A stretch of 28,769 nucleotides of DNA from a virus (taxonomy: Duplodnaviria > Heunggongvirae > Uroviricota > Caudoviricetes). Where the stretch lies: the IMG/VR virus record IMGVR_UViG_2529292720_000011; one strand, given 5' to 3'. The notes beneath the pieces were generated by a model that worked only from the letters and a program-made list of their open reading frames with translations, ran no database searches and was not told the DNA's origin. This document shows positions 5,816 to 12,755 of the stretch, in pieces. Both the position numbers and the translations under genes were made by a program. The first letter of the stretch is position 1. Each line of letters opens with the position of its first letter.

Positions 5816-8623
5816 ATGACGGCAGAGTACATCAGGGACTGGCAGCAACCGCGCCACGCAGTGGGGCGTGAAGGAACGGGGATCCCCGCTCCTGAATCCG
5901 CGCTTTCCTCCTGGCTGGATGCCTACCGGGCAGAGAACGAGCGCTGCCAGGAAATGGCTGATGCGGCGTTCTCCGCCACGCCGCTGGGCAACCTGATTAA
6001 TAAAAGCCTGGACGCACAGGAAAAACAGGACAAAACCATCACACTGGCAGGAGACGCCAGAAAGCAGGTACGCGGCGCGGTGGATGAAGCCATGGCCTCG
6101 CTGCGCCTGCTGCCATCCTATCTGCGCGATCCGCTTATTCGCCACCTCTCCTTCCTGCGCAAAAAACAGGAATCTGACCGCCAGAAAGGTAAAAAGAACC
6201 AGCAGGCTGAACGCTACGCGCGCGGGACCCTGCGCAAAATATTCGAACGTCTGGATCGCACTGACGGGCGCTGGCTGACACCGGGTTATCGCTCCCTTGC
6301 CGGGCGCGAACGCCTGGACGATTTGCTTTCCCTGCCGCAGCTCAACAAGCACCAGATACAGACGCTGGCCACCATGACGGCGGCGATGTTCAGCAGCACC
6401 TTCGAAACACTCTGCGATGGCTTTGGTGCCAGAGATGGCGAGCTGACCATGGATGTAATGTTGAAGGCTTACCGGATGCTGGCCCGTATCGCATTACGCC
6501 TGCACATCATGCCGCCACATTACGAAGCCCTGAACAAGAGCGATCCGGATACGGAACTGTTACCGGGCGCAATCCTTCGCCTGACCTGTGCGGAATGGTG
6601 GAAACGCAAATTGTGGCTGTTACGTTGCGAGTGGAGAGAAGAACAACTCCGCGCCGCCTGTCTGGTTTCCAGAAAAACATCACCCTATCTGAGCCAGGAC
6701 GCGTTAAGCGAGTTTCGCGCACAGCGCGAGAAAACACGCGATTTCCTGAAAAGTTTCATGCTGGAAAACGAAGACGGGTTCACGATTGATCTCGAGACAG
6801 TGTATTACGCGGGAGTAAGTAACCCGGTTCACCGTAAGGCAGAAATGATGGCCACCATGAAGGGGCTGGAACTTCTGGCCGAAGCCCGTGGCGACAAAGC
6901 GGTGTTTCTGACTGTCACCTGCCCGTCAAAATACCACGCCACAACAGAGAACGGTCATCCGAATCCCAAATGGAACGGGGCCACCATGCGCGACTCCAGC
7001 GATTACCTGGTTAACACGTTTTTTGCGGCGGTCCGCAAGAAACTGAACCGCGACGGCCTGCGCTGGTATGGCATCCGCACGGTGGAGCCTCACCATGACG
7101 GCACCGTGCACTGGCATATGATGGTCTTTGCACATCCGGACGAGATTGAAACCATCGTGTCCCACGTCTGCGATATTGCCATTCAGGAAGACCGCCACGA
7201 GCTGGGCGATGACATAACTCCGCGTTTTAAGGCGGAGTACGTAGACGGCTCAAAAGGCACACCAACCAGCTACATCGCCACCTACATCGGAAAGAACCTG
7301 GACAGCCGCGCCGTGGATGGCATCGACCAGAAAACGGGCAAGCCACGCGTTGACCACGAAACCGGAAAATCAATGGCCGAGAGCGTGGAACGCGCCATCG
7401 GCTGGGCGCGCCTTCACCGGGTCCGCCAGTTCCAGTTCTTTGGCATCCCCTCCCGTCAGGTGTGGCGTGAACTCCGCCGCCTTGCCAGCCAGATGGCACG
7501 CAACCCGGAAGGCCCGCAACGGCTGAAGGATGACGCAATGGATGCGGTACTCGCTGCCGCTGATGCAGGATGTTTTGCCACCTACATAGAGAAACAGGGC
7601 GGCGTACTTGTTCCACGCAAAGACTACCTGATTCGCACCGCCTACGACCTCGCCGATGAGCTGAACGATTACGGCGAACAGAGCGTACAGATTTACGGGA
7701 TCTGGTCACCACTCATCGGGGAATCCTCCCGTGTGTGCACGCATCCGGATAACTGGAAGCTGGTAAGACGCAAACCGGAAGCGGAAGACAGCGCCCGCGA
7801 AAATGGTTTTGACCTTCAGGGCGGCCCTGCCGCCCCTTGGACTCGTGGCAATAACTGTCCCCGTGTACAGGAAACAGGCAACAGCGGGACAGAACAGTCG
7901 AAAGAACGGCCAGCACCGTGGCCGCAGCTTCCTGACGGCGTTGAAGTGAACGAATGGATGCGCTCACTGAAACGGCACGAACGCCGGGCGCTGATGCGTT
8001 CGCTTCGTGACAAACAGGTAAAAAACAGCAGTGATGAAATGCAGAGCTGGACACAGAGCCGCAAACAGCAGCGGCCTTTGCCTGATAACCACGAATTACT
8101 CGCTAAAGAATGGCGGGAGTCTGCCGAATCTCTCGGCCTGCATATCGGTGAACAGCAGATGCAGCACCTGCTACGGGGCGGCAGCCTGTACGTTGACGGC
8201 AGCATCATTGCACCGCAGGGATATGAAATTGTACGCAAACCGGATACCCGCCCGGACAGCCGAATCACGCAGCTCTGGCAGCACCTGAGCCGTAATCACG
8301 GCGTAAGCAGCACGGAGATCCGCCATAACCCGGTCGCCAGCTATCTGGCACAGCTGGGGGCATCAGACCCCGAAGCCGCCGCACGCCTGGCATCCGCACT
8401 TCAGCAGGATCAGAACACCATGAAAACACCCGTTACCGTGCTTTCTGACATGCTGCGCGCCATCCGCGACGCAGAGCACGCACAGAGAATCAGTGAAACC
8501 ACTGAACGCGCCAGCCGCAAAGCAGACCTGCTGCAGGGTGGCCTGACCAGTGGAAACAAAAAACAGACAGAAACGGGATCCACAAATCCCGTAAATGAGC
8601 AAAAAACGCGCCGCGATATATGA
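5816..8623 (+). CDS. A: Replication initiation endonuclease gpA (rolling-circle initiator, P2 A family), 935 aa
   Basis: Motifs VTCPSKYHA and TVEPHHDGTVHWHMMVF (HUH-type histidine motif) plus tyrosine-rich catalytic region; position after the early operon as in P2/186. Confidence 0.85.
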   Translation: MTAEYIRDWQQPRHAVGREGTGIPAPESALSSWLDAYRAENERCQEMADAAFSATPLGNLINKSLDAQEKQDKTITLAGDARKQVRGAVDEAMASLRLLPSYLRDPLIRHLSFLRKKQESDRQKGKKNQQAERYARGTLRKIFERLDRTDGRWLTPGYRSLAGRERLDDLLSLPQLNKHQIQTLATMTAAMFSSTFETLCDGFGARDGELTMDVMLKAYRMLARIALRLHIMPPHYEALNKSDPDTELLPGAILRLTCAEWWKRKLWLLRCEWREEQLRAACLVSRKTSPYLSQDALSEFRAQREKTRDFLKSFMLENEDGFTIDLETVYYAGVSNPVHRKAEMMATMKGLELLAEARGDKAVFLTVTCPSKYHATTENGHPNPKWNGATMRDSSDYLVNTFFAAVRKKLNRDGLRWYGIRTVEPHHDGTVHWHMMVFAHPDEIETIVSHVCDIAIQEDRHELGDDITPRFKAEYVDGSKGTPTSYIATYIGKNLDSRAVDGIDQKTGKPRVDHETGKSMAESVERAIGWARLHRVRQFQFFGIPSRQVWRELRRLASQMARNPEGPQRLKDDAMDAVLAAADAGCFATYIEKQGGVLVPRKDYLIRTAYDLADELNDYGEQSVQIYGIWSPLIGESSRVCTHPDNWKLVRRKPEAEDSARENGFDLQGGPAAPWTRGNNCPRVQETGNSGTEQSKERPAPWPQLPDGVEVNEWMRSLKRHERRALMRSLRDKQVKNSSDEMQSWTQSRKQQRPLPDNHELLAKEWRESAESLGLHIGEQQMQHLLRGGSLYVDGSIIAPQGYEIVRKPDTRPDSRITQLWQHLSRNHGVSSTEIRHNPVASYLAQLGASDPEAAARLASALQQDQNTMKTPVTVLSDMLRAIRDAEHAQRISETTERASRKADLLQGGLTSGNKKQTETGSTNPVNEQKTRRDI

Positions 8624-8699: not shown

Positions 8700-9659
8700 A
8701 TGAAAATTTGTATCGACGACGGCTCCACCAACATCAAGCTGGCATGGACTGAGAACGGCGAACGCCGCAACGCCATCAGCCCGAACAGCTTCAAGTCGGA
8801 ATGGTCTGCGCCGTTCGGTGGCACGCATCCCGCGAACTACATGCTTGATGGCGTGCGCTATGGCTTTGATCCGGTCAGCGATCGTTTTGTCCAGACGACT
8901 GACACGCAATACCAGTACAGCGATGTGAATGTAATCGCCATTCATCACGCGCTGGTCAAATCAGGCATCACGCCACAGGAGGTGGATGTGGTTGTCACCC
9001 TGCCACTGAGCGAGTATTTCGACACAAACGCACAGCCGGACATGGCCAACATCAACCGCAAAAAAGCGAACGTCATGCGCCCGGTGGAGTACCAGAACGG
9101 CGAAGCATTCACTATCCGTAACGTACGGGTTATGCCTGAATCCATTCCGGCTGGCTTTAAGGCACTGGCTGACATGAGTCCGTTTGAATCCCTGCTGATT
9201 GTGGATTTGGGCGGAACCACGCTGGATGTGGCAAAGGTTCAGGGGCAGCTGGCAGGTATCAGCCAGGTGTTTTGCGATCCAAACGTAGGCGTTTCCCTGA
9301 TGGCTGATGCCGTGCTGTCGGTGATGGCCACTAACGGTATGCGTACCAGTCACCACATCGCCAATACCATTATTGAGCACCGTCACGATGAAGCCTGGCT
9401 GCGCCAGCACATTCACAATGACGCGCATTACAACAGCCTGATGGCGGTTATTCGTGAAAAGGAGGAGACACTGAAACAACGAGTGATCCGCGCGCTGGCG
9501 GGTTTTTCCGGTTACGGGCGGGTGATGGTTGTCGGTGGAGGGGCGGAGATTGTGGCACCCGCTATCCGCGAAGCCTGCGGAGTTAATGCGACTTTCATCG
9601 CGGACGGGGTGCCACAGTTTGCTCTGGTTAATGGGCTGTACGCAATGAACAAGGAGTAA
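8700..9659 (+). CDS. parM: Actin-like segregation ATPase, ParM/StbA family
   Basis: N-terminus MKICIDDGSTNIKLAW...ISPNSFKSEW matches the R1 ParM N-terminus as recalled (MLVFIDDGSTNIKLQW...ISPNSFKREW); phosphate-2 LIVDLGGTTLDVA and adenosine VMVVGGGAEIV motifs present; 319 aa. Confidence 0.85.
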   Translation: MKICIDDGSTNIKLAWTENGERRNAISPNSFKSEWSAPFGGTHPANYMLDGVRYGFDPVSDRFVQTTDTQYQYSDVNVIAIHHALVKSGITPQEVDVVVTLPLSEYFDTNAQPDMANINRKKANVMRPVEYQNGEAFTIRNVRVMPESIPAGFKALADMSPFESLLIVDLGGTTLDVAKVQGQLAGISQVFCDPNVGVSLMADAVLSVMATNGMRTSHHIANTIIEHRHDEAWLRQHIHNDAHYNSLMAVIREKEETLKQRVIRALAGFSGYGRVMVVGGGAEIVAPAIREACGVNATFIADGVPQFALVNGLYAMNKE

Positions 9660-9663
9660 ACCA

Positions 9664-9975
9664 ATGACGACACCAACCAGAAGAATAAGTTTCTATCTGA
9701 AGCCAGCTGCCGTCAAGAACGAAGGAGAAGCATGCGCATGGCTGGACAGCCTTACACCAGAAGCCCGCAAAAGCGGCCAACGCGTGGCTTTTCTGGCCGG
9801 GCTGGCACTTCTGAAGACGAATCCGGCAGAGGCTTACCGACTGGCCGCATGGGCTGATGATGAGATGTTACCTGTGACACAAATCAGCTCAAAAAAGTTT
9901 GAAGCACAGTCTGCACCAGTGGCTAAGATAACCAGCCAGATGGCTGGGAATATCCGGGCGTTATTTCCTGGGTAA
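9664..9975 (+). CDS. parR: ParR-like RHH centromere-binding adaptor (103 aa)
   Basis: Immediately downstream of parM; RRISFYLKP...WLDSLTPEARKSGQRVAFLAGLALL...NIRALFPG parallels R1 ParR as recalled (RRTIAFKLNP...TLDSIPQGERSRL...ALTAGLALY...ILRSLFP). Confidence 0.6.
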   Translation: MTTPTRRISFYLKPAAVKNEGEACAWLDSLTPEARKSGQRVAFLAGLALLKTNPAEAYRLAAWADDEMLPVTQISSKKFEAQSAPVAKITSQMAGNIRALFPG

Positions 9976-10102
9976 AAGCATCTGCGCGAAAAATGCTCAC
10001 ATTTATAGAAACAGTATCATTCCATTTGGCGCACTTACTTCAATAATCGATCTGTTAAACAAATAGATTGTCTATTATCTATCGATTAAAACGATCAATT
10101 AT

Positions 10103-10131
10103 CTTGACAGTAATGTGCCTTTTTGTAAGAT
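10103..10131 (+). promoter_or_regulatory. Candidate sigma70 promoter
   Basis: TTGACA, 17-bp spacer, TAAGAT (TTGACAgtaatgtgcctttttgtAAGAT). Confidence 0.35.
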
Positions 10132-10236
10132 CGTTCGCATTGTGAGCGACAAGATAATTGCGCGGCATTGTCCATGCAAAACGCCCCAATAGCAGCAACT
10201 ATTGGGGCGTAGAACTCGGTCGGACTCACTTAACCT

Positions 10237-10323
10237 GATATGCGTGCCTTCCGAAGTAAATCAAAATGTGCGTCGTATATTTTATTGCTTACACGCACCT
10301 CTGTAAAGGCACGCATATTTTTC
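10237..10323 (+). other. Structured RNA leader / terminator-like element
   Basis: 13-bp arms atatgcgtgcctt (10238-10250) and aaggcacgcatat (10306-10318) enclose a nested hairpin gtgcgt/acgcac and are followed by a T-run; sits 17 nt upstream of the GTG at 10340. Confidence 0.4.
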
Positions 10324-10339
10324 CTATGAGGTAAATAAA

Positions 10340-10609
10340 GTGCGGGCTAAAACAGGTATTTGCAAGAACCCTCATCGTTATAACCCAACATTTCTGTCTC
10401 TCCCTGAATATCAAGGACAAGAAGGTCGGCACAAATGCGCTGCCTGTGCTTTTGAGCTAGGCATAAAAGATGCGCTTGAAGGACGCGCTATGGCTCAGAA
10501 TGATTTAGTTTTAGCTAACATTCCGTTTAGCCAGGCTGGAACTGTAAGGCACAGAGATGCTTATGAAGCATATGTTAGTGGTTGGCGATTAATACACAGC
10601 AACAATTGA
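10340..10609 (+). CDS. Hypothetical small Cys/His-containing protein (89 aa)
   Basis: GTG start with GAGG 8 nt upstream; C-x(3)-H ... H-K-C-A-A-C pattern may form a small zinc-binding knuckle; followed by a strong terminator. Confidence 0.5.
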   Translation: MRAKTGICKNPHRYNPTFLSLPEYQGQEGRHKCAACAFELGIKDALEGRAMAQNDLVLANIPFSQAGTVRHRDAYEAYVSGWRLIHSNN

Positions 10610-10616
10610 TATTTTT

Positions 10617-10642
10617 GAAGCGCCGATAAGGCGCTTTTTTTG
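10617..10642 (+). terminator. Rho-independent terminator
   Basis: gaagcgcc-gata-aggcgc stem-loop followed by TTTTTTT. Confidence 0.65.
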
Positions 10643-10643
10643 T

Positions 10644-10673
10644 TTGCACGATAGTGCACAAGTTTGCACAATT
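10644..10673. repeat. Three direct repeats of TTTGCAC/AGTGCAC with 10-bp periodicity (iteron-like)
   Basis: tttgcacgat / agtgcacaag / tttgcacaat read directly; a fourth GTGCAC at 10736-10741. Confidence 0.5.
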
Positions 10674-11169
10674 TTTTTGAACGACTTTTTGTACTTCCGG
10701 CCCGCGTGGCGGCTGGATCCGTCAAGGATCCGTACGTGCACAAAAAACGCGTTTTTTCTACGCGCAGGTGACGGGGGAACAGCCCGCGTTTCAGGGGGTA
10801 AATAGCATTCCCTGAACGATGTCGCAGAGACACAACAGAATGGCCATATTTCTCACGCTGAGCATGAAAAAGGCGTGAGGGCTTTTGATTTGATGGGGGG
10901 AAAGGTAAGGCCGTCAAAATCGCACTGAGGCAGCGAGAACATACAGTCAACGTGGTGGGATTGCGTAAGAGTCTGACCGTCGATGGTGGCGATAAACTGG
11001 AAGGCGTCGTGAAATTATCTGATTGATACAGGAGCTGGAGAGTCGGGGCATAAATTTTTTATGCCCCGGCGAAGCAGCAGACAAGCGAAGCGCGTCAGCG
11101 ATACGGCACCTTGCCGACCATACTTCGTAAGTGCAAAATACGAGCAAAGAAATCAATGGAGGCTGTCTT

Positions 11170-11694
11170 ATGGTCATTAATTACAAGCAGTTAAGAGAAA
11201 AACGGGAGCAGGTAAAGGAGAGCTTTCGCCGCAATGAAGATCTGACCCCGCTTGTACGCCTTGCCCAGGGCATTGTTGATGCTTATGAAATCTCGCTGGA
11301 GCTGCCATCACAGACCTGGACAGATAGCGACGGTAATCGCCAGCATTACGTTTCATGCGGACTGGAAGCAGCCGAAGGATTTCGCAGAATGCCTTTATCT
11401 CAGATCCCTGCCGCTACCCCCAAAGCAAGGGGCGGCAATGATGAGCGAAAACTGATTTTCAGCATTGAGACAGTGGTTGACGACACACCTGGCGAAGTCG
11501 CCTTCGTGCATACTCCTCTTTCGATCGCAATGTATAACGATGAAATACAGGTTCGCGTTAATAATAATATCGTGCCACTTAAAGAAGGTAATTCACCCTA
11601 CACCACCGTTTGTGAAGCCATTCAATATTACGTTTTCTCTGAAATTGATAATCTCAAGCCTGACGGCACCCAGAAAATGGTTCAGCTCTGGTAA
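11170..11694 (+). CDS. Hypothetical cargo protein (174 aa from ATG 11170)
   Basis: GGAGG 7 nt upstream of ATG 11170 (ORF track starts at 11131); convergent with portal gene; no motif recognised. Confidence 0.5.
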   Translation: MVINYKQLREKREQVKESFRRNEDLTPLVRLAQGIVDAYEISLELPSQTWTDSDGNRQHYVSCGLEAAEGFRRMPLSQIPAATPKARGGNDERKLIFSIETVVDDTPGEVAFVHTPLSIAMYNDEIQVRVNNNIVPLKEGNSPYTTVCEAIQYYVFSEIDNLKPDGTQKMVQLW

Positions 11695-11726
11695 AAAGGA
11701 CAGCCCCATCACGGGGCTGTTTTTTC
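11693..11726. terminator. Bidirectional intrinsic terminator between convergent genes
   Basis: AAAAA-ggacagcccc-atca-cggggctgt-TTTTTT; overlaps the last codons of the portal gene. Confidence 0.6.
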
Positions 11727-12755
11727 ATCAAGAAGAGCATAAGAGTTAAAACGGATCACCTCTTCGCCAAGCCAGTCATTGATGTGCTTCATGGCCTCCA
11801 TAACGGGCATCAGCTCGTTAATTGCGTAAACCCGCGCGGCCTTCTCCACATCACCAAACGCACTTTTTTCGCCCGGCATCGCCCCCATCAGTTGCGGCGG
11901 AACACGGTGCGCAGCCAGCACATCATCACGGGATGCCGCCTTAACATTCATGAACTCATCTTTTGCGGTGATCTGCTGGAACGGCAAAATTTGCACCCCC
12001 TCTTTGCCCCCGTTGGGCGCATGAATGAGCACGTTTTTAAACGCACCACCACCACGTGCCCCCTGTAGCGTTTCTTTCAGGGAGTCCATGCTTTCGCGGT
12101 TTACCTGCGCTGCACCGATGTAGATGATGCACCCGGCGTGGGATCCGTTGTCGTAGTACAGTTTTCTGAACATGTCCGCCGAATGAGAAAGGCTGGCCGA
12201 GAGTAATGCGCCAAGATATTCCGGCATGCCGTAGATTTCCTGGTTAATATCCGGATTCATCAGGTGGCACACTTTGCCAGGACGAAACTGAAACGCGTCC
12301 TTGCCATCCTGCACATACCACCATGATTCAAGATCGCTTCCGCGTCGCATGTATTTCGCCAGGGCGTGCCGTAATTTAAGCGGTTCGCCGAGCATATTGC
12401 TCCGAAGCTCAAGGAATGCGTTACCGAACACAAACCAGTCCAGCGCCAGCGCCGAGAAATCCTGCCGGGAAAGCAGCGGGTGCGGAATATAGCAGCCGAG
12501 CAATACATTGCGCTTAAAGTAAAGCGCAGACTGATGCCAGGACGTTTGCCGGGCAGCTCTTGCCAGACCGTACCAGTCCACCGGGGTTTCATACCACCGC
12601 CCGTTATCAGCACAGTACATATTGTCCAGCAGGTCATGCCCGGTCAGGCGATAAGGACCATCAAATGTGAATGCACTGAGCGATGATTCTTTCCTGAGCG
12701 CATCAGCGAGATCAATGCGTGAACTCATGCGCACTTTTTTATTTTTTCTGCTCAT
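11709..12755 (-). CDS. Q: Portal protein gpQ (P2 Q-like)
   Basis: 348 aa (P2 Q about 344 aa as recalled); adjacent to and co-oriented with the terminase large subunit. Confidence 0.8.
   Translation of the reverse strand: MSRKNKKVRMSSRIDLADALRKESSLSAFTFDGPYRLTGHDLLDNMYCADNGRWYETPVDWYGLARAARQTSWHQSALYFKRNVLLGCYIPHPLLSRQDFSALALDWFVFGNAFLELRSNMLGEPLKLRHALAKYMRRGSDLESWWYVQDGKDAFQFRPGKVCHLMNPDINQEIYGMPEYLGALLSASLSHSADMFRKLYYDNGSHAGCIIYIGAAQVNRESMDSLKETLQGARGGGAFKNVLIHAPNGGKEGVQILPFQQITAKDEFMNVKAASRDDVLAAHRVPPQLMGAMPGEKSAFGDVEKAARVYAINELMPVMEAMKHINDWLGEEVIRFNSYALLDEKTAP

Follow-up and report, generated by a model that had tools for sequence, protein, structure and literature searches.

Why does a prophage keep the gene of a small Cys/His protein under a promoter and a terminator of its own, and what might such a protein recognise? 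The gene in question lies at positions 10340–10609 of a 28,769-nt stretch of DNA (IMG/VR record IMGVR_UViG_2529292720_000011, hereafter the window), which is an Escherichia coli prophage of the P88-like type (Xuanwuvirus, Peduoviridae, P2-family). We propose tentatively, at a little under an even chance, that its 89-amino-acid (aa) product is a GATC-linked DNA-recognition module that was captured by phages and is made only transiently. The initial annotation of the window described the gene as a transcription unit of its own, equipped with a structured leader and a terminator, and the elements that we located agree with this description.

10340–10609, plus strand: the 89-aa open reading frame (ORF), between parR and the cos/portal region; GTG start, with GAGG at 10328–10331, 8 nt upstream of the GTG
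10104–10131, plus strand: sigma-70-like sense promoter, TTGACA-16-TAAGAT; GATC at 10129–10132 overlaps the −10 element and GATC at 10093–10096 lies 8 nt upstream of the −35 element
10138–10339, plus strand: 5′ untranslated region (UTR) of about 200 nt; hairpin at 10182–10209, long hairpin with arms at 10238–10250 and 10306–10318, Shine–Dalgarno (SD) sequence and GTG locally paired
10279–10307, minus strand: antisense promoter within the leader; −35 TTTACA (10307..10302), 17-nt spacer, −10 TAAAAT (10284..10279)
10176–10272, minus strand: predicted cis-antisense small RNA of about 95 nt, starting near 10272 and ending at the hairpin 10209..10182 followed by UUUUG
10617–10645, plus strand: intrinsic terminator (hairpin 10617–10637, 8-bp stem, T-run to about 10645), the right boundary of the mobile module

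The predicted folding energy of the leader (10138–10360) is −71.4 kcal/mol (z = −4.1), and none of 200 shuffled sequences was as stable.

Protein family, predicted fold and putative zinc site

The 89-aa protein matches phrog_3941, a family without assigned function, over nearly its entire length (E = 2.1e-48; residues 4–89 correspond to positions 1–86 of the 86-position profile). Searched exhaustively with HMMER, a set of 1.84 billion representative proteins yielded 173 clusters (50% identity) at E ≤ 1e-3, mostly of 80–100 aa; a word-indexed search with the window protein found two near-identical clusters only. The family had not been recognised in the initial annotation, and none of the curated libraries that we searched gives it a name. 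Pfam, NCBIfam and PADLOC contain no match (the sole Pfam hit, to an O-methyltransferase dimerisation domain at 13.6 bits, is spurious), a PDB sequence profile search gave 0 hits, and no profile of a known anti-phage defence or anti-restriction family in PADLOC or Pfam was matched. The named relatives are all ‘hypothetical protein’, none with a precomputed Pfam domain. Neither the family nor the small RNA is described in the literature searched, on phrog_3941, DpnII controllers, DUF3883/DndB and P2-like type I toxin–antitoxin (TA) loci. Relative to these libraries and this literature, the family, its link to DpnII cassettes described below and the antisense RNA are new.

Six residues (C8, H12, R30, G41, Q65 and R70) are invariant in an alignment of 48 homologs, and H31, C33 and C36 are conserved in at least 90% of them. 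The window protein retains all the invariant residues, within the motifs C-x3-H ... RH-x-C-x2-C and SQAG-x2-RH(K/R). Judged from this alignment, the Cys/His pattern is conserved and not a product of chance, and the metal-binding knuckle first proposed from the spacing in one sequence thus gains support at the family level.

A structure prediction, envisaged as a check in the initial annotation, gave a confident AlphaFold2 (AF2) model from the 48-sequence alignment, with a predicted local distance difference test score (pLDDT) of 90.9 and a predicted template modelling score (pTM) of 0.84. The model consists of two repeats, each composed of a beta-bridge, a 3-10 turn, a second beta-bridge and a long helix. 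It has no fold neighbour in the PDB and no likeness to a solved zinc-finger fold. The profiles of the N-terminal and C-terminal halves align with each other in hhalign with a probability of 98.9% (E = 2.9e-17); on this evidence the domain is an internal tandem duplication of LPxxQxGxxRH(K/R)xxxxA(Y/F)xxG. The Cys residues are confined to the first repeat; the second, which has none, repeats H31 as H71. C8, H12, C33 and C36 are the likely zinc ligands, that is, the four conserved Cys/His positions (a knuckle plus a helix N-terminus) expected of a zinc finger or treble clef, which are present in the sequence. Since the RH motif recurs in the repeat that lacks Cys, H31 is probably not a ligand. 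By inference, the two Q...RH(K/R) motifs would form the functional surface.

Linkage to DpnII-type GATC cassettes and nuclease fusions

We examined the neighbourhoods of 80 homologous loci (numbered with the prefix L), on contigs from one genome per species, which span Bacteroidota, Clostridia, Treponema, Myxococcota, Xanthomonadales, Neisseria, Helicobacter and others. Clustering of the neighbouring ORFs, with families identified by Pfam, revealed a D12 Dam-like N6-adenine methyltransferase at 39 loci, a DpnII endonuclease at 33 and an N6_N4 (DpnA-like) methyltransferase at 33. By their families, these three genes together constitute the classical GATC-specific DpnII cassette, and the linkage was reproduced by independent gene calls. 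The usual order is M1-small-R-M2 in Clostridia, with gaps of 1–20 nt where the start of R does not overlap, and M1-R-x-M2-small in Bacteroidota; in Treponema, the small gene is antiparallel within the operon. At a few loci the small gene accompanies a Dam-like methyltransferase alone.

The domain also occurs in longer proteins. Among 55 long homologs, it is combined with NOV_C/DUF3883 (25), HNH (8), HNH_2 (5), DndB (3), WYL (1) or HEPN (1), so that fusions to nucleases make up 38 of the 55. The NOV_C fusions, a family of 943 clusters, contain the Cys-bearing half twice; all three that were examined lie inside DpnII operons, between a DndB-like gene and an N6_N4 methyltransferase gene. Three such extended cassettes of Bacteroidota (L165 2547–8243, L166 3730–7703 and L168 1698–6840) share the order Dam-like methyltransferase, DpnII, a hydrophobic protein of about 160–176 aa, DndB-like protein, double-half-repeat::NOV_C nuclease and N6_N4 methyltransferase. 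They look like a multi-component system that goes beyond a classical type II restriction–modification (R-M) system.

A further layout, in Firmicutes, is a divergent operon in which an Xre-type helix-turn-helix (HTH) gene is followed by a gene for a 175-aa protein and, last, by the small gene. This accessory operon lies opposite three methyltransferase genes and an endonuclease gene at L172 (3191–4258) and also at L173–L175 and L154; at L173 a Mrr_cat nuclease gene replaces that of DpnII. The 175-aa protein, which has conserved counterparts in Bacteroidales and Neisseria (37% identity, E = 1e-32), contains a PD...ExK motif and matches PDDEXK_11 close to threshold, at 23 bits against a cut-off of 23.7. 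The proteins of about 160–176 aa in the Bacteroidota cassettes were considered as a PD-ExK-like partner as well and ruled out, as they belong to a different, hydrophobic family.

The Cys/His domain thus recurrently adjoins nucleases, or is fused to them, in a GATC-methylating context. To judge from gene order and domain architecture, this is the usual signature of a target-recognition module. Familiar enzymes that join a reader domain to a nuclease, such as DpnI with its winged helix and the SRA-HNH and PUA-HNH type IV enzymes, resemble the fusions in that a small N-terminal domain precedes an HNH_2, HNH or PD-(D/E)XK-type nuclease, and in the tie to a single DNA methylation motif, GATC. They differ in that the Cys/His fold is unrelated to theirs, having no PDB neighbour, and in that the phage protein has no nuclease. 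Dependence on methylated GATC is unlikely, because the three NOV_C fusions sit in operons that themselves methylate GATC.

A small gene in an R-M operon, often directly upstream of the endonuclease gene, is reminiscent of the controller (C) proteins such as C.PvuII and C.Esp1396I. The family might accordingly comprise transcription regulators of a non-HTH type that time the expression of the endonuclease, the phage copy being an orphan that regulates itself or phage genes, or interferes with an incoming R-M system. The small size and basic character of the protein (isoelectric point, pI, 8.9) would suit such a role, as would the fusion of one homolog to a WYL regulator domain and of three to DndB, which regulates dnd genes. 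In Clostridia the small gene is directly upstream of the DpnII gene and co-oriented with it, like classical C genes, but this is not the case in Bacteroidota, in Treponema or for the phage copies. C proteins are Xre-type HTH dimers that act on system-specific C-boxes, whereas in the Cys/His family no Xre-type HTH was found (no HTH family in Pfam or NCBIfam, and an AF2 topology of beta-bridge/helix repeats), a Cys/His site is present, fusion to nucleases is frequent (the 38 of 55 long homologs counted above) and the candidate contact residues are invariant across phyla, which argues for one universal ligand and not for locus-specific operators. Moreover, a separate HTH regulator often co-occurs, and many cassettes own a regulator, either the Xre-type HTH gene or an HTH_17 domain on the methyltransferase; the latter was found in the one case scanned (L107), and the other M1 genes of Clostridia are of similar length. 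We found no conserved operator upstream of the small gene in the R-M loci. The promoter of the Clostridia operons does contain a conserved inverted repeat, TTCnAG..nnGAA, which could equally serve the HTH domain borne by the methyltransferase; the N-terminal HTH_17 domain of that enzyme probably uses it as an operator. Altogether, a controller-like function appears rather unlikely.

The DpnII-operon promoters of L116, L124, L136, L142, L156 and L157 have in common GGTATTGC..TTCnAGnTTTnGAATATAAT, about 40–70 nt upstream of M1, with an inverted repeat between the −35 and −10 elements.

A protein ligand also deserves consideration. The linkage to genes for Dam-like methyltransferases and DpnII would be compatible with a protein that inhibits, or acts as an adaptor for, a DpnII-type endonuclease, a Dam-like methyltransferase or MutH. 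The phage copy would then be an anti-restriction protein that binds the enzyme; it resides in moron hotspots, where anti-defence genes are common, and its control would permit a burst of expression at DNA entry. Yet a constitutive inhibitor encoded within a restriction operon would disable that very operon, the N-terminal fusion to HNH_2 and NOV_C nucleases corresponds to the usual layout of a DNA reader joined to a nuclease, and the lack of similarity to known anti-restriction families in Pfam and PADLOC speaks against this explanation as well. We consider it quite unlikely.

The phage module and its antisense RNA

The stand-alone gene travels, as a module of about 550 bp, in phages of enterobacteria and Gilliamella, where it occupies three different hotspots. 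Phage homologs with about 50–63% protein identity are found in other phages of the P88-like type, where a second allele occupies the slot used in the window (L038); in a P22-like Salmonella phage, downstream of cI, the position that lambda uses for rex; in lambdoid phages of Providencia and Proteus, on the opposite strand and flanked by Q and the lysis genes; and in prophages of Gilliamella, Yersinia, Rahnella and Pantoea. The second allele (L038 4989–5621) encodes 92 aa with 63% identity and is followed by an extra gene of 95 aa (phrog_33929, a family without assigned function). Homologs with 47–49% identity in Citrobacter and Klebsiella (L110 4308–5303; L127 4309–5313) have no antisense leader; the genes that follow code for a DUF4062 protein and an integrase, which points to an island of another kind.

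About 265 nt upstream of the start codon can be aligned in all of 21 diverged loci (alignment A3), and both promoters keep their TAnnnT signature across loci whose proteins share only about 50–60% identity. Positions T50, A51 and T55 of the sense −10 element (TAnnnT) are invariant. On the other strand, GTAAAG at the antisense −35 element is invariant in 21/21 loci and lies upstream of the start codon, at a distance of 33–46 nt in 20 of them and of 27 nt in L068. It is the reverse complement of (C)TTTAC(A), and the element reads TTTACA in 20/21 loci and TTTACT in L061. A minus-strand TAnnnT follows 17 nt further on, with A203, T207 and A208 invariant. As far as an alignment can tell, the conservation follows the textbook pattern of a promoter, directed away from the gene.

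Downstream of the predicted antisense start, at a distance of 30–45 nt (57 nt in the window allele), lies a GC-rich hairpin. Each lineage has its own hairpin sequence but retains the pairing, and a U/C-rich tail follows on the minus strand. Folded sequence by sequence, the hairpins have 29 G-U pairs as minus-strand RNA and 8 as plus-strand RNA, and their energies sum to −408 and −381 kcal/mol, respectively (RNAalifold recovered 6 basal pairs only, the inner stems being too divergent for MAFFT); they fit an RNA of the minus strand better. The predicted antisense RNA would be about 65–80 nt long in most loci and about 95 nt in the window, and complementary to nucleotides ~18–105 of the mRNA (~50–135 of the mRNA leader in the window). 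In every group the SD sequence, and usually the start codon, is enclosed in a local hairpin that each lineage forms from different sequences. When the antisense target was constrained as occupied, the predicted accessibility of the SD/AUG region fell in 12 of 13 loci, which suggests, weakly and in silico, that the antisense RNA may repress through refolding. The tight regulation surmised in the initial annotation thus extends to a conserved antisense promoter and to the hairpin in which the ribosome-binding site and start codon are paired.

Rfam contains no family for this RNA; there were sub-threshold hits to ctRNA_pGA1 and to the sar terminator-like hairpin (E ~0.2). The sar RNA of the P22 ant gene and the plasmid countertranscript RNAs are likewise short antisense RNAs with a terminator-like hairpin, here predicted on a phage accessory gene, but a sequence family relationship to sar or ctRNA_pGA1 is lacking (22 bits versus gathering thresholds of 43–45).

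Taken by itself, the architecture of the module recalls type I TA systems such as tisB/istR-1, zorO/orzO, hok/sok and symE/symR, in which the leader is long and structured, the ribosome-binding site is sequestered and an RNA is transcribed from the strand opposite the leader. A type I toxin with an antisense small RNA as antitoxin, serving prophage stabilisation or abortive infection, would also be consistent with the self-contained and mobile nature of the module. However, toxins of this type usually have fewer than 60 aa and are hydrophobic or membrane proteins, whereas the 89-aa protein is hydrophilic and mildly basic (grand average of hydropathy, GRAVY, −0.53), with no hydrophobic segment and a maximum of 0.58 in a 19-residue Kyte–Doolittle window. 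Its homologs in many phyla are co-oriented members of ordinary operons without a detectable antitoxin RNA; the antisense partner appears, in silico only, in the leader of the 89-aa gene, and this leader is restricted to the phage clade of Enterobacterales and Gilliamella and absent from most of the family. A membrane toxin is rejected on both hydropathy and operon context, and on the same grounds toxicity of the classical type I kind is distinctly unlikely. Thus, of the three functions considered in the initial annotation (toxin, anti-defence protein or regulator), the first is not favoured and the other two are narrowed down to the biology of GATC R-M systems.

Conservation of the antisense promoter and hairpin could also mean that the small RNA, acting in trans or in exclusion, is the functional product and that the ORF is secondary or decaying. 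This is very improbable given an ORF conserved across phyla, with invariant residues and a confidently predicted fold, and an RNA that most of the family does not possess.

GATC sites in the leaders

The alignable leaders contain 2–5 GATC sites each (3–5 in all but the window), against about 0.9 expected, and the sites fall in conserved alignment columns. A GATC is present upstream of the sense −35 element in 19/21 loci, at the sense −10 element or transcription start in 11/21, at the antisense transcription start, in GAGATCTC or GTGATCAC, in 18/21 and beside the antisense −35 element in 13/21. The window allele has GATC at the sense promoter only (10093 and 10129), plus 10049. As a whole the window is poor in GATC, with 68 sites versus 102 ± 10 expected from dinucleotide-preserving shuffles, 100/100 of which had at least 68; given this overall depletion, the occurrence of three sites within 84 bp at the sense promoter is conspicuous.

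By analogy with IS10 pIN/pOUT and finP/traJ, the leader sites suggest methylation-sensitive promoters or autoregulation at GATC. In IS10, where a Dam-sensitive promoter is combined with RNA-OUT, and in traJ/finP, the resemblance lies in a GATC over the sense −10 element together with a cis-antisense RNA, and with such a layout, expression would be tied to how the DNA is methylated. The difference is that the product of the 89-aa gene is itself tied to GATC systems.

Phage context and cargo slot

The surroundings of the gene in the window are as follows.

5816–8623: gpA-like rolling-circle replication protein of 935 aa, with a long C-terminal extension
8700–9659: ParM
9664–9975: ParR/StbB
10043–10102: imperfect inverted repeat of 26 nt, 73% complementary, with ATCGAT palindromes and GATC at 10049 and 10093
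10645–11130: ORF-free stretch with several hairpins and GGATCC...GGATCC at 10715–10731
11131–11694, plus strand: 187-aa ORF (phrog_5091, a family without assigned function), between the cos region and portal gene Q
11709–12755, minus strand: portal gene Q

The slot of the 89-aa gene holds different small genes in the relatives P88 and PhiR44_2, and similarity to the window restarts at 10645 (P88) or 10618 (PhiR44_2), at or just within the terminator. The ‘cargo island’ of the initial annotation is therefore a genuine cargo hotspot. The module, 551 bp in this search, is present in 166 of 5,426 complete E. coli genomes, chromosomal in every case, and its gene is unannotated in most of the 12 matches listed. 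The window copy stands alone, with none of the D12, DpnII or N6_N4 genes of a GATC R-M neighbourhood; near the locus there is no ORF of the size expected for a methyltransferase, and no match to such an enzyme was obtained among the ORFs scanned.

The cos site is probably located in the ORF-free stretch, because the genome record of phage P884B11 begins at about window position 10694. The 187-aa ORF beyond it is a second variable cargo gene, found in PhiR44_2 and vB_EcoM-569R5 and absent from phage 520873, and has no match in Pfam, NCBIfam or PADLOC. The gpA protein of P2 has about 760 aa; the gpA-like gene of the window carries a split annotation in some phage records, and about 75 nt separate it from parM. 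The 26-nt inverted repeat, between the parR stop codon and the sense −35 element and directly upstream of the latter, is common only to the P88-like loci L038 and L042 and may be a parC centromere or a ParR-type operator downstream of parMR.

Proposed function

The gene and its family, the genomic linkage and fusions, the internal repeat and the conservation of promoter and hairpin are established. Starting from these, we infer that the protein binds zinc and DNA or GATC and that the antisense RNA is expressed, as well as Dam dependence and a biological role. Since the family appears to be a dedicated accessory of DpnII-type cassettes, its most likely ligand would be the palindromic GATC, possibly read by methylation state; candidate contacts invariant across phyla, pseudo-two-fold symmetry and the link to GATC systems all point to a single palindromic ligand of this kind. 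The protein would be a small zinc-stabilised module of two pseudo-symmetric, beta-beta-alpha-like repeats, each presenting Q...RH(K/R), and the family would serve DpnII-type R-M cassettes beside nucleases or fused to them.

Temperate phages of Enterobacterales and Gilliamella would have captured the stand-alone form as a self-contained moron of about 550 bp, a moron being a cargo gene with its own promoter and terminator. Three gates would control it: a sense promoter with GATC beside and over it, which may be sensitive to Dam methylation or autoregulated; a short cis-antisense RNA from the conserved promoter in the 5′ UTR; and a hairpin that would sequester the ribosome-binding site and start codon. 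The expected outcome is a brief burst of protein following infection or induction, at a time when phage DNA is hemimethylated or carries no methylation and the protein could occupy GATC sites or compete with GATC-directed nucleases; in a settled lysogen it would be silent.

Several observations weigh against the proposal that the protein is a GATC-linked DNA-recognition module under such control. Linkage to GATC systems could equally reflect binding to the methyltransferase or the endonuclease instead of GATC, and some homologs reside in unrelated contexts (DUF4062 plus integrase; relaxase). The GATC enrichment upstream of R-M operons that would be expected of a GATC-binding autoregulator was not found. 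The antisense promoter of the window allele has no GATC, and the antisense terminator has a short U-tract and was not listed by the consensus terminator scan. Furthermore, shielding of GATC would seem counter-productive inside a restriction operon. For this reason, target recognition for a second nuclease is a more likely native role than DNA shielding, which in turn leaves the role of the nuclease-less phage copy uncertain. That this copy competes at GATC sites, or shields them, for as long as phage DNA is under-methylated is speculative. The most specific version of the proposal, in which the family is a new class of minimal, pseudo-dimeric zinc-finger GATC readers that direct a second nuclease (a PD-ExK protein in trans, or NOV_C or HNH in cis) and the phage copy is a transient GATC shield or decoy gated by methylation and antisense RNA, is doubtful as a whole.

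Implications

GATC is among the best-studied epigenetic sites of bacteria, being the target of Dam, SeqA, MutH, DpnI and DpnII, and nevertheless a widespread and conserved accessory domain of GATC cassettes has remained unnamed, without a Pfam model or a structural relative. If the domain does read GATC, it would represent a new minimal DNA-reader fold, and many ‘DpnII’ cassettes would be multi-nuclease systems. The phage module, a compact case of three stacked controls on one 89-aa gene, would then provide a testable candidate for the means by which temperate enterobacterial phages, such as the GATC-depleted one in the window, survive GATC-directed attack.
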